From a bacterium (GTDB lineage: Bacteria > RBG-13-61-14 > DATKZS01): DNA of 64,000 nucleotides. The stretch lies in the NCBI GenBank assembly GCA_046484135.1, contig JAWOBU010000269.1:401-64400 (forward strand). Reading direction: 5' to 3'. Below are positions 1 through 55,693 of the stretch, one piece after another (within the stretch, counting starts at the first letter, position 1; every line of letters begins with the position of its first letter). The notes below the pieces were generated by a model. That model was not told the DNA's origin, did not search any database, and was given only the letters and a program-made list of their open reading frames with translations. The translations under genes were made by a program, and so were the position numbers.

Positions 1-103
1 AGGGATAACCCGGCGGGGCTCATCAGACGATGAGAGGGGCGTAGGGATTTCCCCTGCGCCCACCCGATAAATCTCTCATCGGATGATAGACCCCTTATGC
101 CTC
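1..103 (-). repeat. Window-truncated second copy of a ~100-nt hairpin-forming repeat module (homologous to 20575-20677, opposite orientation)
   Basis: Reverse complement of 1-103 aligns almost base-for-base with 20575-20677; differences concentrate in the apical loop and include a compensatory stem change. Confidence 0.75.
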
Positions 104-128
104 AAAAAACTCCCGCCCGAAGGGCGGA
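103..128 (-). terminator. Rho-independent terminator after the 165-416 gene
   Basis: Minus strand reads CCGCCC-TTC-GGGCGG followed by GAGTTTTTT, about 40 nt after the stop codon at 165. Confidence 0.55.
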
Positions 129-164
129 AACAAAGGCAGTGAGTACCACCATCGTACTCACAAA

Positions 165-416
165 TCAAAAACGGAGGCTCTCCAATTCACGCTGAACCAG
201 GACAAAAAGTGGAGAGCCCACTTCCATATTGAAGCTTACGGTGCAGTCGGCCGAACAACCGTCTCCCACAGTAAGGTTTCCATCGTCGCATTGCTCTCCC
301 GCGTCAACACTGCCGTCTCCGCAAACGTCTTTTTCAAAAACAAAGTAGGAGATCAAAAAAAGACCGACAAGCAGAAAAAAGCAGATGAATATAAAGAATT
401 TTGATTTGTCATTCAT
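165..416 (-). CDS. Small membrane-anchored protein with one cysteine-rich repeat (CGDG..D.GE.CDDGN...GDGC...C, Myxococcus-type Cys-rich repeat pattern)
   Basis: ATG at 416 is preceded by GGAGAG; the track start at 455 is a TTG. Hydrophobic N-terminal helix followed by the Cys-rich repeat. Confidence 0.5.
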
Positions 417-4337: not shown

Positions 4338-4415
4338 TGGCGGGGCCGACGGGACTTGAACCCGCGACCTCTGGCTTGACAGGCCAGCGTTCTATCCGGA
4401 CTGAACTACGACCCC
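4338..4415 (-). tRNA. tRNA-Asp (anticodon GTC), CCA encoded
   Basis: Manual cloverleaf: GGGGTCG acceptor, GTTCAGTCCGGATAGAAC D-arm, CTGGC-CTGTCAA-GCCAG anticodon arm, GGTTCAAGTCC T-arm, ends GCCA. Confidence 0.9.
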
Positions 4416-4479: not shown

Positions 4480-4552
4480 TAGGCGGGACAGGGATTGAAC
4501 CTGCGACTTTCGGCTTGTAAGGCCGACGCTCTCCCAACTGAGCTACCCGCCT
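4480..4552 (-). tRNA. tRNA-Val (anticodon TAC), CCA not encoded
   Basis: Manual cloverleaf: AGGCGGG/CCCGCCT acceptor (7 bp), GCTCAGTTGGGAGAGC D-arm, TCGGC-CTTACAA-GCCGA anticodon arm, GGTTCAATCC T-arm. Confidence 0.9.
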
Positions 4553-4681: not shown

Positions 4682-5731
4682 TCAACCAGGGGGATTAGCC
4701 GGTATGAGCCCTGCGCCGGGAACGTGAACACGATATTTTTGCGGCGCGAGCATTTCAAAGGACACGGACACACTGAGAAAGCTTTTTATGACCTCGGCGT
4801 GGGTCCGAGTGTGCTCGGTGACTTCAGAGGTCAAGAAACTTCCGCCTTGCCCCAGCGCCAGCGGCAGAAGCAACTGGTCTGCCAGCCGGGGATCAACCGG
4901 CACCCGGGTCCGGACAAAGTTTTTCGCCTCCCGCGCCGCTTCCCTCGCGACCCGCTCCGCTTTCTTGCCCGGCTGGCCAAAGCCGGTTATAAGGACAGTC
5001 CGGTCTCCCGACTCATACCTTATGAGAAGGGCATTGCCGGGCCCCACTTCGCCGGGAAGCACTCGCGTGTGGACAGAGGCGGGGTCCAGCCCCAGCCGCT
5101 CCGAAAGCTCCATCTGCTCTCGGTCCGCAACGTGCTCCGGCAGGTTGCTTATCAGGACCTCGCAATCGGGCCCCCGCCAGTCCGTCTCCTCTTCCAGCCG
5201 GAGAGGCGAAGAAAAACGCCAGGGACGCACAACCGCACGGAGCGCGCCGCCTCCCCTCGGATAAAAGCCGTGCCTGATAAGCTCGACCTCTGCGTCCATG
5301 CCCAGCTTGCGGACCTCGGGAAGGAAGCACTCCGAAAGGTACTCCACCGGCGGCGCGCCCGGGTTATGGGTCCCGCCGTGAATGGTTATCACGCTCTCGT
5401 CCTTTCCGAAAGAGAGTACCGGCAAAAGGGTCTGGAAAACCAGCGCAGTGCTTCCCGCGGTGCCTATCTCGAAGCTGTACCTGCCCGGCCGAACTTCGCC
5501 CGGCTCGAACTCGAGATCGCCGGAGAAGCGCTTGGCCCCTGTTGCCGTGCCCTTAACCACCTTGTTTATTGACCGGACCGCGGAGAGGTGCTGGGGCTGC
5601 AAACCGGGCTTGGAACGGCGCGAGCGGATGTTCTCCATCTTAAGACTGCGGCCCGAAACCGCGGCCAGGGAAAGCGCGCTCCGGAGTATCTGCCCTCCGC
5701 CCTCGCCGAAACTGCCGTCAATAAATATCAT
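4682..5731 (-). CDS. rtcA: RNA 3'-terminal phosphate cyclase
   Basis: 349 aa. N-terminus IDGSFGEGGGQILRSALSLAAVSG and overall length are typical of RtcA. Confidence 0.85.
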   Translation of the reverse strand: MIFIDGSFGEGGGQILRSALSLAAVSGRSLKMENIRSRRSKPGLQPQHLSAVRSINKVVKGTATGAKRFSGDLEFEPGEVRPGRYSFEIGTAGSTALVFQTLLPVLSFGKDESVITIHGGTHNPGAPPVEYLSECFLPEVRKLGMDAEVELIRHGFYPRGGGALRAVVRPWRFSSPLRLEEETDWRGPDCEVLISNLPEHVADREQMELSERLGLDPASVHTRVLPGEVGPGNALLIRYESGDRTVLITGFGQPGKKAERVAREAAREAKNFVRTRVPVDPRLADQLLLPLALGQGGSFLTSEVTEHTRTHAEVIKSFLSVSVSFEMLAPQKYRVHVPGAGLIPANPPG

Positions 5732-20285: not shown

Positions 20286-20536
20286 TTTGCCGACCCTTGT
20301 CCGTAAGTGGTTCTAAAGCATTGGAACTATCCATTCCATCATCCGCCCGAGCTGACTTTTGAAAAAGTTTCCAGGATAAAGAATGTGTATGTTCGACTAG
20401 TGTAGTGTCACACTCTGTTTGATCCTTATTAATTCAGTGTAAAGGTTACGGGAGCACCTATGCGATGACAGCTTTCCCTCGCCCTTTCAATATAGACCTA
20501 TGTCCGACCGCTCTCTTGTTTCCGCCCTTTGGGCGG

Positions 20537-20574
20537 CCTGCCTGCCGCGCTACGGCGCAGGCAGGGGGTTTTTT
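20537..20574 (+). terminator. Inward-facing intrinsic terminator just inside the left end of the element
   Basis: CCTGCCTGC...GCAGGCAGG stem followed by GGGTTTTTT on the + strand; preceded by a second small hairpin CCGCCC-TTT-GGGCGG. Confidence 0.5.
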
Positions 20575-20677
20575 GAGGCATGAGGGGTCTATCATCCGAT
20601 GAGATTTATCGGGTGGGCGCAGGATGTGTTTCCTACGCCCTTCTCATCGTCTGATGAGCCCCACCGGGCTATCCCTT
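20575..20677 (+). repeat. Structured ~100-nt module (candidate ncRNA or DNA hairpin), copy 2
   Basis: Rod-like fold: 20584-20596 with 20650-20662, 20597-20604 with 20642-20649, 20615-20623 with 20632-20640. The second copy is at 1-103. Strand of function unknown. Confidence 0.5.
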
Positions 20678-20755
20678 GGCGGGTTGCTCCCCAGCAGAGC
20701 CCGCCTCCGTTTGACCCGGCAAAAACATATTAGCATCCTAACAATATCAAGGCAA

Positions 20756-21526
20756 TCACTCGGCTCCTCCCAGTTCGTCATCAATGGCAAGGTACTCGCG
20801 CACCAACGACAGGCCCATGTTAAGCGTGTAAGCGGTCTCCTCCACGCCAAGGCCTTGAAGTCGGCAGTGGCGTACGCGGTCGTATTGACCCAGGTAGCGG
20901 TCTACCGACTCAAGGCTGTGATAGGTTTCCTCCGCGATCTGGTGCGGCTCCTTGCCTTGGGCGTAACGCTTCAGGCAAATTATCCGCTTGTGGGTCAGGC
21001 CGCTGCCCATGTCGTGAAGAGTGGAGCGGCGAGGAACGATCTTGCCCGTCTTCCGTTCGTGCTCGCAAAGCAAAGAAGCTATTCCGCTGTCAGTGATATT
21101 CATCATCATGGCAAGGTCGCAATTGGACAATAACGCCCCCTGCTCGTAGGCCTGGCGGCACAAACGCAGGGCCTTTTGCAGATGCCTTTCTCGATATCCG
21201 GTCCTTTCCAAAATCAAATCGAGGTCTTCGGGTGTCACCAGATCAAGGACCACGGGAACAAGATCGCTGTCCCGGGTGAGTCGGTATTGCTTCGGCGGAT
21301 CGTTGATGGAATAGCCGAGCCAGAGAACCTGGCCGTGGCTCAAGTTCTCGCGGGAACGCACGTGATCGTCGATCACTTCAAGGACCATGTCGGCGCAAAG
21401 ATCGAGGATGCGAGCGCCACCGAGCCGAGGGAACTCCTTGCCGATCTTGTGGGCAAGCGCGGCCCGCAAGTCCTTGTCCTTGAGCGGGAGGCACTTCTTG
21501 GACACGTAATCAACCTTGCCGCCCAT
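20756..21526 (-). CDS. DUF1670-like helix-turn-helix protein (paralogue B, 256 aa)
   Basis: ATG at 21526 with AAGGAG 8 nt upstream. Motif QGALLSNCDLA...IVPRRSTLHDMGSGLTHKRII plus a second HTH-like segment. Family name is from memory only. Confidence 0.6.
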   Translation of the reverse strand: MGGKVDYVSKKCLPLKDKDLRAALAHKIGKEFPRLGGARILDLCADMVLEVIDDHVRSRENLSHGQVLWLGYSINDPPKQYRLTRDSDLVPVVLDLVTPEDLDLILERTGYRERHLQKALRLCRQAYEQGALLSNCDLAMMMNITDSGIASLLCEHERKTGKIVPRRSTLHDMGSGLTHKRIICLKRYAQGKEPHQIAEETYHSLESVDRYLGQYDRVRHCRLQGLGVEETAYTLNMGLSLVREYLAIDDELGGAE

Positions 21527-22229
21527 GGCCGACGCTCCTTGTTCTTTTTTTCCCCCGGGTCCGGCCGAGTCGCAAAAGCTCGTCAAGGTGGTAACTCATG
21601 TTCTTGTCGCCCTCGCATTCGTTCAAAAGATCGAGGTAATGCTTGATGAGGCCGGGCCCGCGCTTGAGAAGGAAGGCGATCTGACCGACCTGCATCTCCT
21701 GCCGGGCCAAGTGAGCGCACCTTGCGAACGTGGACAAATAGTTGGCCACCGCCTCCGGAGAATGGCGCATGATGCTGCAAATCTGGGTCGTGGTCTTTCC
21801 TTGAAGAGCAAGGCGGATGATCTGCACTCGATGGGTCAACACCGGCCCGATGTCATGCACCGTGCTCCGCAGAGGAAGCGGGACCCCGGGATCGGCCTGC
21901 CTGAGCCAAGAGAGGTCCCGGGTGATGGTGCGAGTAGAGACGAAAAAGATGCGATAGGCAAGGTCCTCGCGGGTCAGCAAAGCTCCCTGGCTCATCGCCT
22001 CTTGGCACAGCTTGGGAATTTTAGTTCTTCTAAACGAGGACGCTCCTTGCCGGCAAAGAAGCTCGTCGTCTTGTACACCATTATGAACGGTAAGGTGGAC
22101 CGTCCGCTTCTCGCAATCCACCACCGGCTTGCCCGCCGGCTCGTCAGCGCTGACCGCCACGAGCGTGATTTTGCCCGGATGACCGGTGGGAGCCTCACGG
22201 TCAATGAACGGTAAATACACTGACAACAT
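21510..22229 (-). CDS. DUF1670-like HTH protein (paralogue A), main frame
   Basis: Homologous to 20756-21526 from FIDREAPTGHPGKITLVAV onward. The region upstream of 22229 in this frame looks non-coding (Arg-rich). Confidence 0.5.
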   Translation of the reverse strand: MLSVYLPFIDREAPTGHPGKITLVAVSADEPAGKPVVDCEKRTVHLTVHNGVQDDELLCRQGASSFRRTKIPKLCQEAMSQGALLTREDLAYRIFFVSTRTITRDLSWLRQADPGVPLPLRSTVHDIGPVLTHRVQIIRLALQGKTTTQICSIMRHSPEAVANYLSTFARCAHLARQEMQVGQIAFLLKRGPGLIKHYLDLLNECEGDKNMSYHLDELLRLGRTRGKKRTRSVGHGRQG

Positions 22230-22356
22230 TAACAACCGCCTCCGCCTCGAAAGGCGAGCAGTTAAGCCCGTGCTGTACTTCGTTTTTGAACCTGGCATCA
22301 AGCGTCTTGCACTCCAGCCTGAGCAACTCCTCCCTGCTTTGGTTGCGTATACCCAT
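22201..22356 (-). CDS. 51-codon ORF likely encoding the N-terminus of paralogue A in a different frame
   Basis: ATG at 22356 has AAGGAGGTG 5 nt upstream. The product (..REELLRLECKTLDARF..FEAEAVVNVV) aligns with the N-terminal helices of paralogue B; overlaps the main frame by 29 nt. Confidence 0.4.
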   Translation of the reverse strand: MGIRNQSREELLRLECKTLDARFKNEVQHGLNCSPFEAEAVVNVVSVFTVH

Positions 22357-22534
22357 CGCAACACCTCCTTTCCATATGCCAATATAATGTATAAATTACC
22401 GGTGGGACATATGTCTAGAAGGGTAGGGCGGAAACAAGAGAGCGGTCGGACATATGTCTATATTGAAAGGGCGAGGGAAAGCTTAAAAGGAATTCATAAG
22501 TGCCAAACAAAGTGATACACTAGCTCCCGTCCGC

Positions 22535-22592
22535 CTCCCACCATCCAAAACCTTTATTGCCGCCTCGATAATCAGACTTTTGCAAGGGGCTC
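22535..22592 (+). repeat. 3' half of a MITE of the 55563-55693 family
   Basis: CTCCCACCATCCAAA...CCTCGATAATCAGACTTTTGCAAGGGGCTC matches the right half of the 55563-55693 element; starts 12 nt after the mobile element flank. Confidence 0.55.
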
Positions 22593-30929: not shown

Positions 30930-31790
30930 GGAGTGCGGTGGCTTGCCGCCGCTTTGTGTCAGGGAGCTTGCTCCCGGTTGCCTTTCTTCCAGCTCCAACG
31001 GAGCGCCGTATATTAGCCAGGGGTTTTAACCCCTGGAAAAATGGGTATGGTTATGGCGCGTCCTGAAGGGACGCTGGAGTCCGTGGGATCGCGGGCGTCC
31101 CTGTCTGCGTGCGGACACGCACAGGCAGGCCGCCCGCTCTTGTTCTGCGGCCGAGACGGCCGCGTTCCCGGCCATTCTCCGCCGTCCCTTTGGGACTTGA
31201 GATGCTGGTCTTGATCGTGTCTGGAAGTCGCTCGCACAGGGGAGATGGGAGGAAACGCAACGGCGCTATGACGCAAGGGAAGAAGGAATATATTTTCAGC
31301 TAACGGAACAAAGACATATCGCGACTGAAGTCGCTCGCACTAAAGTCATGTTGAAAAAAAGAACCGTTGCGGCGTTGTGTCGTTGCGTTTAGAGCCAGGC
31401 TGGTGCTTGGCGGTCCCGGGGGAATTTTGCCAGGCTTCCGCCTGGCGGTCCCGGGGGGAGTTGCGTTTGGAGCCAGGCTGTGCTTATGGTGGGAGAGACC
31501 TCCAGGTCTCGATTATCGTGAGCAGGAGCTCACTCCCACCCGGATAGGCTATGCAGGCGGCGAGAAGCCGCAGGATGAAACCATCCTGTGCCAATGGCAC
31601 CCGGATAGACGAGCTATCCGGGCTACCGATCCATCCTGCGCTTTTTTCAACCGCCAGGCTGGAGCCTGGCGCTCCCAGGTTTTTTTGCCGGGCTCCCGCC
31701 CGGCGGTCCGGGGGGCAGGGCTCAGGCCCTTTCAACCAACTTCATCCTCACAACATCTTCCCTGAATATCCCTCCTGAAGCCTGCGCATG
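30930..31790. repeat. Non-coding mosaic of more than 20 short GC-rich hairpin repeats (REP-like cluster)
   Basis: Includes GCCRGGC-N4-GCCYGGC(GGTCCCGGGGG) units at 31393, 31428, 31653 and 31687; a CGCGACTGAAGTCGCTCGCAC unit at 31320; a 53-nt junction module at 31488-31540; a 28-nt direct repeat at 31381 and 31460. Confidence 0.65.
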
Positions 31791-51126: not shown

Positions 51127-52725
51127 CTACGGGCTCGAGCTCGGAGACCTCGACCTTGTCCAGGGTGTCGTGCTCGTCGAGGAGGTAGTAAGGACAGCCT
51201 CCAGGGTGTCGTGCTCGTCGAGGAGGTAGTAAGGACAGCCGATCCAGGAGATCACGGGCACTCCGGCTTCCAGCACGTAGCCGGAGGCGTCCGAGGTTGG
51301 CGCGGGCCCGAAGAAATCGGCGGGTATGGACGCGGTGGCTGCCGCGGGTTTCCGCTCCAGGCTCTTCATGACCGCGGCCACCACGTCTTCCTGCGGTGAG
51401 GTGAACATCACGGTGAGCGCGAGGTTCCCGGTTTCCTTGTACCCTCTCCCGCTCTCTTCCACTTCCTTGGCCGCCAGGTGTTCGAGGGTGATAAGGATTC
51501 GGGTCCGGTCCATGATGTCGGGATGATTGCGGGCGAAAAAGTGGCCTCCCTTGGAGTCGTAGAAATGACCGCCGTCCACCACAAAGACCATGGTCTTTTG
51601 CCTTTGTTCCTTCGGCACGCGCGACCATGCCCATGCCTGGGCCAGCACCTGGGCCACTCCGGCGCCGTCTTCCACCGCCCCTTTAAAGGGCGCGTCGTGA
51701 TGCGAGGTTACCAGTATGACTTCGTCTGACTGGCCGGGAAGCACTCCCCATACGTTGTGCATGACCCCCGGCTGTTTGATGCCGGTAAGGTTCAACGTGG
51801 CTTGTTCTCCGGCGATGGCCATCTCGCGGAGCTTTTCTCCTTCGTACTTTCCTATCCACAGGCCGGGCATGGGCTTCATGATGCCGTCGTAAGGGCCGTA
51901 ATGTGAATTGGTGCCGCCGGGCTGGTCCTTGAGTATAAGGCAGATGCCCGCGGCGCCGTTTTTTACGGAGTTCCAGTACACGTCGTTTGGCGGCGCCGTG
52001 CCTACTGTGGTGCCTCCCAGGAAGTTGGGCCGGACGAAGTTCAGGTACTGGCCGGAGCCGAGATTGATGGACCCGTGCGGATCGGACACGGTATAGGCCG
52101 CGTTCAGATATTTCAAAAGCAGGCCGCTGGGAAGGTATGGAAACGGCAGGTCAGCGACCACTATCTTGCCCTTGACGCCTTTTTCCTCGAAGTCCGCGGG
52201 AGTGCCCTCGCCCACGTACACCAGGGGAGCGGTTACTCCTTCCGGACCGGTAAAGCCGGTGTTTACCACGAAGAAGCTCGGTATGGTCTGTCCTCCTGCT
52301 TTAAGGGACCAGTTCTTTGCGTCCCATACGGTTACGGGCACGGGATCCATGGTGATGTTCTGGAGTCCGATTTCCTGGAACCGGTCGCGGACCCACTTTT
52401 CCGCGGCGTGGTCTTCTTCGGTCCCGGGCCGGCGGTGGGGCCACTGGCAGATGCCTTTGATCCAGGAGAAGATGGTCTCCGAATCCGGCACCCGGACCTC
52501 GCCCTGGTAGTCGGGCAGGTCGCGGGCTTTCATCTTTGCCTTCATGGTAAGGGACCAGACCGAAGGAAGTCTTTTCAATATCTTTACAAGGGTCTGGTTT
52601 TCACTAACCGGCGACTCGTCTCCCCACATCTCGGTGGTTCCCGACCCCATGAAAAAAGGAGCCGCGGCAATCAACAACGCCAGCATATAGATCGCTTTCT
52701 TCTTTGTCGTGCTCATGCGCTTCAT
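51127..52725 (-). CDS. Secreted M28-family peptidase with a PA domain; 3' end frameshifted by a 41-bp tandem duplication
   Basis: Signal peptide after the ATG at 52725; SHHDAPFKGAVEDGAGVA metal-ligand motif. The last 24 codons are out of frame relative to the ancestral end, which is still readable to 51080. Confidence 0.7.
   Translation of the reverse strand: MKRMSTTKKKAIYMLALLIAAAPFFMGSGTTEMWGDESPVSENQTLVKILKRLPSVWSLTMKAKMKARDLPDYQGEVRVPDSETIFSWIKGICQWPHRRPGTEEDHAAEKWVRDRFQEIGLQNITMDPVPVTVWDAKNWSLKAGGQTIPSFFVVNTGFTGPEGVTAPLVYVGEGTPADFEEKGVKGKIVVADLPFPYLPSGLLLKYLNAAYTVSDPHGSINLGSGQYLNFVRPNFLGGTTVGTAPPNDVYWNSVKNGAAGICLILKDQPGGTNSHYGPYDGIMKPMPGLWIGKYEGEKLREMAIAGEQATLNLTGIKQPGVMHNVWGVLPGQSDEVILVTSHHDAPFKGAVEDGAGVAQVLAQAWAWSRVPKEQRQKTMVFVVDGGHFYDSKGGHFFARNHPDIMDRTRILITLEHLAAKEVEESGRGYKETGNLALTVMFTSPQEDVVAAVMKSLERKPAAATASIPADFFGPAPTSDASGYVLEAGVPVISWIGCPYYLLDEHDTLEAVLTTSSTSTTPWTRSRSPSSSP
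51159..51240. repeat. Perfect 41-bp tandem duplication (2 copies)
   Basis: TCCAGGGTGTCGTGCTCGTCGAGGAGGTAGTAAGGACAGCC occurs at 51159-51199 and again at 51200-51240. Confidence 0.9.
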
Positions 52726-55562: not shown

Positions 55563-55693
55563 GAGCCTCTTGCAAAAAGGGCGGAGAGAAGGTGGGAGAG
55601 ACCTCCAGGTCTCGATGATCGCGAGCTGGAGCTCGCTCCCACCATCCAAAGTCTAACTTACCCCCTCGATAATCAGACTTTTGCAAGAGGCTC
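55563..55693. mobile_element. 131-bp MITE with 15-bp TIRs and a 5-bp target duplication
   Basis: GAGCCTCTTGCAAAA (55563-55577) is the inverted complement of 55679-55693. GTTTA flanks both sides (55558-55562, 55694-55698). Contains the 53-nt junction module at 55591-55643. Confidence 0.7.

Follow-up and report, generated by a model that had tools for sequence, protein, structure and literature searches.

The first 204 bases of the stretch of DNA analysed here, 64,000 nucleotides of contig JAWOBU010000269.1 that are together called the window, are almost certainly the right end of an insertion sequence (IS) of the IS3 family. This end contains a structured unit that is truncated at the window edge. 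The unit is complete at 20566-20722 on the minus strand, within an element of another kind that carries two paralogous genes of the DUF1670 family. The unit is most likely a small RNA borne by these elements, as judged by comparing related loci. The interpretation as a whole, an IS3 end with an element-borne structured small RNA that is shared with DUF1670 elements, is given a probability of about 0.6. An earlier inspection of the window (the original prediction) had regarded positions 1-135 as a copy of an autonomous structured repeat or non-coding RNA that is captured by, or shared with, the element at 20.4-22.5 kb. The unit is indeed conserved, structured and shared with that element, but it is not autonomous.

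Positions 1-204 and the IS3 family

A metagenome scan with a 20-mer taken from the hairpin of the module found 14 loci (individual loci are denoted by L numbers). In most of these the homology extends past the hairpin and breaks off abruptly at TGTCCTGGTTCAGCGGGAA; the flanks on the far side are unrelated, and two contigs start exactly at this boundary. The boundary sequence TGTCCTGGTTCAGCG is common to 12 loci that have differing flanks. Inward of the hairpin there are two overlapping genes on the strand opposite to that of the search pattern, encoding a helix-turn-helix (HTH) protein of about 100 amino acids and an rve/DDE protein of about 335 amino acids. These genes, orfA and orfB of the complete copies, match the NCBIfam IS3 family transposase model (NF033516) and the Pfam families rve and HTH_Tnp_1. 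The right terminal inverted repeat (IRR) together with a left repeat (IRL), TGTCCTGCCTCAGTTGGAA, was located in seven loci (L003, L005, L011, L012, L013, L016 and L028), giving elements of about 1.62 kb; contig L003, which is 1,624 nucleotides long, is the IS from end to end. A flanking duplication of 4 bp, TTAT, is present on both sides of the element in L011, and there is none in L016. The window copy shows one end only.

Positions 1-204 (plus strand, the sense strand of the element) align over their full length, with 91.2% identity, to the last 204 nucleotides of the complete copies L011 and L016 and finish at the same terminus. The IRR of the window copy, CTCCAATTCACGCTGAACCAGGACA, occupies 180-204 of the plus strand and matches both the IRR, TGTCCTGGTTCAGCGGGAA, and the IRL, TGTCCTGCCTCAGTTGGAA, of the complete copies. 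The repeats have the form TG...CA, the window copy ending in ...GCTGAACCAGGACA. Just inside the repeat, at 139-161 of the same strand, is a hairpin, called hairpin A (GUGAGUAC..GUACUCAC), that is conserved in the IS3 copies and whose stems covary among them. The orfA and orfB genes of the window copy are expected to lie to the left of position 1, beyond the window.

Because positions 1-204 align to the IS terminus, the hairpin at 113-127 and its U-tract at 104-109 are IS sequence. The original prediction had taken this hairpin for the terminator of the gene at 165-416, which is untenable, the hairpin being situated inside an IS that ends at 204. The open reading frame (ORF) at 165-416 on the minus strand is of the DUF4215 type (Pfam DUF4215), small, with Cys-rich repeats and an N-terminal hydrophobic segment. 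The IS end at 204 falls inside this ORF, so that its last 12 or so codons and its stop codon come from the IS and the ORF was probably truncated by the insertion. The hairpin at 113-127 with its T-run may nevertheless stop the transcript of the ORF, acting as the inward-facing terminator of the IS itself. The local annotation is thereby corrected to an IS end over the first 204 bases, followed by what is probably a truncated gene.

It had also been stated that the copy at 1-135 lacks the terminal inverted repeat (TIR) of the element at 20.4-22.5 kb and is thus not simply another element end. The first half of this statement is correct; as to the second, the sequence is an element end, but that of a different element. 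The same applies to the alternative offered at the time, a complete copy of the same element with a rearranged end, which was right in placing an element end here but not in the family to which it was assigned.

In representative genomes, the 20-mer scan gave one true match (L002) and one chance match in an Acetobacter coding region (L001). A blastn search of plasmids gave no match, and a scan of viral contigs gave zero matches.

A structured unit in two kinds of element

The near-identity that had been claimed between the reverse complement of 1-103 and 20575-20677 is confirmed. A repeat finder aligns two ungapped arms, 1-45 with 20632-20676 at 93% identity and 74-114 with 20564-20604 at 95% identity, between which the apical loop is replaced and there is a 2-nucleotide indel. 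A 20-mer derived from one arm occurs at these two sites only in the 64-kb window, against a chance expectation of 0.01. The hairpin GTTTCCGCCCTTYGGGCGG and a T-run precede the module in both copies, as had been noted and as the sequences and their alignment bear out, with the qualification that an extra 29-nucleotide hairpin, at 20537-20565, separates the GTTTCCGCCCTTYGGGCGG hairpin from the T-run in the copy at 20.5 kb. The differences between the copies do preserve structure, the apical loop being changed and the stem retained. The reported GA insertion, with its accompanying T-to-C change, is likewise found and gives the copy at 1-103 additional pairing, a state that L011 and L016, the nearest IS3 copies, share. 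The folds are far more stable than those of shuffled sequences, with z = -7.4 for 1-135 (plus strand) and z = -5.6 for 20560-20690 (minus strand). The window copy at 1-112 clusters with L011 and L016, and the 20.6-kb copy clusters with L018 and L019. As each thus falls with the lineage of its own element, the differences represent divergence under structural constraint rather than a recent duplication.

The 103-nucleotide module is the P3 helix of a larger structured unit of about 160-200 nucleotides. On the gene strand the unit consists of a P1-P2 domain, P3, an A-rich linker and a GC hairpin, and it occupies the interval from the last stop codon to the element end or terminal repeat. The right end of the IS3 elements is about 290 nucleotides long and is made up, in this order, of a promoter-like site, P1, P2, P3, the linker AUGCCUUAAAAAAC, a GC hairpin called hairpin B, hairpin A and the terminal repeat. 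Helix P1 (GCCGGG / CCCGGC) encloses two near-invariant junction strands, UGAAACGGAG and AAGGGAUAG. Helix P3 is interrupted by a tandem GA/GA internal loop and, on its 3' side, by a bulge of 10-12 nucleotides (ACC..AAA).

A covariance model, R1, was built from 13 sequences with a hand-derived structure and has 157 positions and 44 pairs. It matches all of the collected loci, including a divergent variant described below (variant 2, E ~4e-5), and finds two sites only in the window. The complete unit in the DUF1670 element (20566-20722, minus strand) scores 185 bits over model positions 1-157; its P1-P2 domain lies at 20663-20720 and its P3 at 20584-20662, followed by the linker. The match on 1-112 is to model positions 47-157 and carries a 5'-truncation flag, because the window edge cuts the junction ahead of the 3' strand of P1. 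What remains on the plus strand is the junction AGGGAUA with the P1 3' strand CCCGGC (1-14), the long imperfect hairpin P3 (15-94), for which z is the -7.4 given above, and the linker UUAUGCCUC-A6-CUC with GC hairpin B at 113-127 (together 95-127).

The T-runs of hairpins A and B, and of the additional hairpin in the DUF1670 copy (hairpin C), are present on the antisense strand only, and there the hairpins score as terminators. An intrinsic-terminator pattern, CCGCCCTTCGGGCGG-GAG-TTTTTT, is found at 104-127 of the minus strand, facing into the IS, and its homologue in L011 is picked up by a terminator scan. In the DUF1670 element, hairpin B (20522-20536), hairpin C (20537-20565) and the T-run (20569-20574) on the plus strand have the appearance of a tandem terminator directed into the element (20522-20574). 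Hairpin C (CCTGCCTGC...GCAGGCAGG, GC, about 27-29 nucleotides) occupies the same position in the linker of the window DUF1670 copy and of L002 (5538-5564) and has no counterpart in the closest relatives of either. A second, similar hairpin is situated inside the P1-P2 junction of L002, at about 5376-5402. The idea that hairpin C is a small dispersed repeat was rejected, the hairpin being present only in the window DUF1670 copy and L002.

Conservation of the structure was assessed on a model-fitted alignment of 25 sequences. Standard pairing is observed in 95.3% of the cells, compared with 83.4% in 500 shuffled alignments and 36-44% when the pairing partners are slid along the sequence. Compensatory changes, which the original prediction had suggested looking for, are found at 38 of the 44 pairs (26 of 27 in P3), compared with 11.1 after shuffling and 10-14 for slid partners; none of the 500 shuffles reaches the observed value of either measure. 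When 13 close sequences are aligned with plain MAFFT, covariation is still seen in P2 and in the apex of P3, and the lower P3 stem is invariant because the retrieval pattern was taken from it. Covariation of the lower stem is contributed by the loci that were retrieved by protein. On the gene strand there are 66 G·U cells and 22 A·C cells, 13 of the latter coming from one doubtful pair. The ratio is reversed on the opposite strand, so the pairing is strand-specific, and the unit is likely to function as an RNA structure of the sense strand.

A promoter-like site precedes the unit. In a comparison of 24 loci anchored on the model, nearly all have a -10-like hexamer that ends 4 nucleotides ahead of the first model position, with TTGnnn 16-19 nucleotides further upstream. 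The spacing to P1 is kept both within the OrfB coding sequence of IS3 elements and in the non-coding DNA after the DUF1670 stop codon. In the IS3 elements the site, TTGACA-18-TAAACT (10/12 in L011), lies within the variable C-terminal tail of OrfB. The OrfB residue that follows the conserved Asp varies (N, R, K, T or M) while its codon always begins with A, which points to a constraint on the nucleotide rather than on the protein. In the DUF1670 elements the site begins at the stop codon and is non-coding; in the window it is TTGCCT-17-TAATAT (20727-20755, minus strand), directly after the stop codon of the second gene (20756-20758).

The window DUF1670 element has two paralogous genes on the minus strand (20756-22356), ORF2 at 20756-21529 and ORF1 at 21510-22356, which match Pfam PF07900 with E-values of 1e-47 and 4e-37. 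ORF1 has a 5-nucleotide deletion at about 22216-22220 relative to L018, which is 94% identical, and this splits off an ORF of 51 amino acids at 22201-22356. The first gene of the window element is thus probably defective. The right terminal repeat is at 20482-20511 (sense GCGGTCGGACATAGGTCTATATTGAAAGGG), as defined by the ends of L018, L019, L020, L025, L034, L035 and L042; terminal repeats of the relatives are about 30 bp long (CCCTACCYTTCTWGACATATGTCMCACCG). Comparison of repeats and ends places the true left terminal repeat at 22399-22428, followed by an inverted copy of the right end with its flank at 22429-22483. This extra copy, directly outside the left end, produces the long "TIR" of the original prediction, which pairs with 20470-20528 and is not the canonical end. 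The join of the extra copy is at the half-site of hairpin B, and an inverted duplication, or a second copy that has been deleted, is suggested as its origin.

The relatives of the DUF1670 element, and further IS3 relatives, were fetched by protein and hence independently of the DNA search pattern. In DUF1670 loci with 94, 73, 65, 62 and 61% amino acid identity, the unit follows the stop codon of the second gene and precedes the terminal repeat, except in L017, where the 3' region is replaced, and in L033, whose contig ends too early. IS3 relatives at 67-72% protein identity carry the unit too. Three copies of the DUF1670 element (L025, L026 and L027) are found at different sites in one assembly, showing that these elements of about 2.1 kb are mobile; further pairs occur in multi-copy elements of the same size (L020-L024 and L034-L041). 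The AlphaFold2 model of DUF1670 is confident, with a predicted local distance difference test score (pLDDT) of 87, and has a small α/β part and several helix-turn-helix units. A Foldseek search with this model gave nothing below E = 0.1, the top matches being SelB winged helices, Pax and LuxR-type domains. NCBIfam contains no model of DUF1670, sequence comparison gave no solved relative, and no mention of the family was found in the literature searched. The proteins consist of HTH arrays, with no recognisable catalytic or transposase domain.

In nearly all of some 40 related loci the unit lies within an IS3-type or a DUF1670-type element, the exceptions being L002, a solo IS end, and L009, where it is next to an IS110-type gene. 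It is shared down to about 60-70% protein identity in the IS3 clade and in the DUF1670 elements. A more divergent form of the P1-P2 domain, variant 2, is found in one IS3 locus (L029) and in two DUF1670 loci (L034 and L042). IS3 and DUF1670 copies are homologous from P1, the expected start of a transcript, to a point just past hairpin B (GGAAACAAGRG); the promoters and termini are non-homologous. The module of the window DUF1670 element is 96-97% identical to its closest DUF1670 relatives, 89-90% identical to IS3 copies and 71-75% identical to other DUF1670 copies. The IS3-like character of this module, together with the occurrence of both variants in both element types, indicates that the unit has been exchanged laterally between the two families more than once.

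In L009 (1460-1860) the unit has no IS3 gene upstream and no hairpin B downstream. An IS110-type transposase gene on the opposite strand abuts the A-rich linker, and an IS110-family insertion into the hairpin B region is a possible explanation. Upstream of P1 this locus has T-runs and a TAAGTT -10-like hexamer.

Possible functions of the unit

The unit is most likely a small RNA that would be transcribed from its own σ70-type promoter, which overlaps the end of the last gene. Transcription would begin at P1 and proceed outward over about 160-200 nucleotides, in the direction of the element end. As no terminator is present on the sense strand, its 3' end would probably be set by the GC hairpin or hairpins. 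On the opposite strand, the hairpins and T-runs would act as inward-facing terminators, shielding the RNA and the element genes from transcription that reads in from outside. That the junction nucleotides are invariant suggests that a protein partner is bound there. The RNA might, with the HTH proteins of the element (OrfA or OrfAB of IS3, DUF1670) or with a host factor, control or assist transposition; such a regulatory or cofactor role can be put forward only tentatively and is, on balance, doubtful.

A number of observations weigh against this interpretation. The sense transcript and its ends are predicted from sequence, and the sense strand has no intrinsic terminator that would define the 3' end. 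The promoter-like site of the window DUF1670 element is weak (8/12) and below the scan cut-off. The pair counts come from the model-fitted alignment and are biased toward the structure, and many of the IS3 copies were retrieved by an exact P3 20-mer, the lower P3 stem being invariant in that subset. A profile comparison of IS3 OrfA with DUF1670 detected no relationship and suggested no shared RNA-binding domain. IS3-type DDE transposases are not known to require RNA. The right end at L002 stands alone, with no transposase genes nearby, and the window IS, the body of which would lie beyond the window edge, may likewise be incomplete.

The alternative that survives best, though it is rather unlikely, is that the unit acts in cis only, as a structure in the 3' untranslated region (UTR) that stabilises the mRNA and insulates the element, with no separate small RNA and no partner. 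The T-runs and terminator scores of hairpins A, B and C, confined to the antisense strand, and the lack of a sense terminator speak for this, as does the finding that at every locus the unit immediately follows the last gene on the strand of that gene. A generic stabiliser, however, does not need particular junction and loop nucleotides, and these are invariant across 30-40% protein divergence. It also leaves unaccounted for the promoter-like site at a constant distance from P1, in coding and non-coding contexts alike, and the start of the IS3-DUF1670 homology exactly at P1.

An improbable alternative is that the promoter serves the junction formed when the element circularises or makes a tandem dimer, in which case the outward transcript would cross IRR-IRL and provide a structured 5' leader for the element genes. 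IS3-family elements transpose by a copy-out-paste-in pathway, and circle-dependent promoters are established for them. They are also established for the IS110 family (PMC11208160). The promoter-like site faces the element end, no sense terminator intervenes before the terminus, and IS3 and DUF1670 elements agree in its orientation with respect to the genes, all of which would suit a leader. The IRL, however, as read from its sequence, already has a good promoter (TTGGAA-17-TAAAAT in L011 and TTGGAA-17-TAGAAT in L016), a very stable leader of 270 nucleotides would be superfluous for mere transcription, and the formation of circles by DUF1670 elements is only supposed.

A more far-reaching proposal is that an RNA cofactor is required for the mobility of DUF1670 elements and that the IS3 DDE clade gained the RNA by exchange of cassettes. 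DUF1670 elements would then be a new kind of RNA-dependent mobile element, because they move and yet encode HTH-array proteins only. This, too, is improbable. A guide or bridge RNA that would pair with the ends or the target, be essential to DUF1670 elements and have been borrowed by the IS3 clade is very improbable. The DUF1670 elements are mobile, having three insertion sites in one assembly, and the unit sits in a long non-coding end beside the terminal repeat, as does the RNA of IS110/IS1111 elements (PMC11208160). Against this, the complementarity of the unit to the IS3 termini and flanks is no longer than in shuffled controls: in the seven complete copies the longest complement is 6-9 nucleotides, compared with shuffled means of 6.8-7.4 and maxima of 9-11 (the calculation was made for IS3 ends and flanks, and DUF1670 ends were compared by eye). 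In addition, the variable loops change while the IS3 repeats are constant, and the flanks of IS3 insertions have no common target sequence.

The reading of the original prediction, an autonomous small repeat, similar to a repetitive extragenic palindrome (REP) or a miniature inverted-repeat transposable element (MITE), that landed in or near different elements, deserves hardly any credence: the solo copy without nearby transposase genes (L002) and the copy beside an IS110-type gene (L009) would fit it, but L002 retains the IS3 terminal repeat and is therefore an IS remnant, the 64-kb window has two copies only and both are inside elements, the unit has the same position and orientation in every IS3 and DUF1670 element examined, diverging together with them, and neither terminal repeats nor target duplications belong to the unit itself.

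Several other identities were considered and rejected. Rfam 15, a check that the original prediction had proposed, gives no match at gathering level on either window copy. Permissive Rfam searches of the element ends (E up to 1-10) gave only sub-threshold matches, to Fibro-purF (14.7 bits) and, on the antisense hairpins, to anti-hemB (21-22 bits). A hammerhead ribozyme was suggested by a CUGAUGAG box on the antisense strand; the GAAA after the stem is absent and there is no model match with E up to 10. A small antisense ORF (MRFIGW...PFSSSDEP...) appears conserved only because its nucleotides are; inside it the copies differ in length (38, 39 and 32 nucleotides) by other than multiples of three. 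A mini-ORF in the linker, AUG-CCU-UAA, has CAA for UAA in some copies and AUA for AUG in L020. The neighbouring genes are IS3 orfA/orfB or DUF1670 pairs and not a DEDD recombinase, which speaks against an IS110/IS1111 bridge RNA; the sole IS110-type neighbour, in L009, is on the opposite strand and is read as a secondary insertion. An ωRNA of the IS200/IS605 type was rejected because no TnpB or IscB gene is present at any locus and the HEARO and IS605-orfB Rfam models do not match.

Other features of the window and comparison with known systems

The window has two tRNA genes on the minus strand, at 4341-4415 and 4480-4552, with Rfam tRNA scores of 70 and 72 bits. An Rfam Acido-Lenti-1 match is found at 30991-31036 of the minus strand (41.2 bits, gathering threshold 37), and a weak, sub-threshold match to the same family occurs at 1319-1365 of L029. 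Four hairpin-like GC repeat units of about 34 nucleotides are located in the intergenic region at 31394-31720. Another intergenic unit, of about 100 nucleotides, lies at 55591-55693; its first half recurs at 31488-31540 and its second half at 22535-22592, adjoining the flank of the DUF1670 element. A perfect tandem duplication of 41 nucleotides is present at 51159-51240.

The complete relatives of the window IS resemble members of the IS3 family such as IS911, IS2 and IS150 in having an HTH orfA and an rve/DDE orfB that match the NCBIfam IS3 model. They also resemble them in their imperfect TG..CA terminal repeats of about 25 bp, their length of about 1.6 kb and, in L011, the 4-bp flanking duplication. 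The clade differs from the rest of the family in its right non-coding end of about 290 nucleotides, with a structured RNA-like unit and a promoter-like site. The ends of IS3-family elements are normally short, and no such RNA is known to have been described for the family; the literature searched gave nothing relevant on an IS3-associated RNA.

The arrangement is similar to that of the bridge RNA (seekRNA) of IS110/IS1111 elements, a structured RNA of about 150-200 nucleotides in a long non-coding end with a σ70-type promoter ahead of it. The IS110 family has been singled out among IS families for having the longest non-coding ends (PMC11208160). Unlike those elements, the ones described here have no DEDD recombinase, and the promoter is complete inside the element instead of being rebuilt at the circle junction. 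Furthermore, the loops have no above-chance complementarity to the IS3 ends or flanks, and no relationship was detected with Rfam or covariance models.

There is also a likeness to the enterobacterial small RNAs DapZ and MicL, whose promoters overlap the 3' end of the ORF ahead of them and which are themselves situated in the 3' UTR on the same strand. DapZ and MicL end at the intrinsic terminator of the mRNA and act by Hfq-dependent base pairing, whereas the present unit has no sense terminator, is far more structured and travels with mobile elements. On the antisense strand, hairpins B and C with their T-runs are like intrinsic terminators and would stop transcription that enters the element, including that from the ORF at 165-416. 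They are unlike the terminator of a flanking gene in that they belong to the mobile element, in which they form about 30-60 nucleotides of the shared sequence.

The DUF1670 family (PF07900) has no described function. Here its members occur as paralogous pairs in elements of about 2.1 kb with repeats of about 30 bp and the RNA unit. The structured unit that this IS3 clade shares with DUF1670 elements is absent from Rfam 15 and from the literature searched, and appears, as far as this search extends, to be undescribed. In IS110 elements (bridge RNA) and IS200/IS605 elements (ωRNA), structured RNAs encoded by the element are key to the mechanism, whereas classical DDE insertion sequences, those of the IS3 family included, are generally regarded as working with protein only. 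Should the RNA prove to be produced and to be important for mobility or maintenance, the unit would be a new RNA family for transposon biology and a first handle on the nature of DUF1670 elements, and the covariance model would be ready for annotating such elements in metagenomes.

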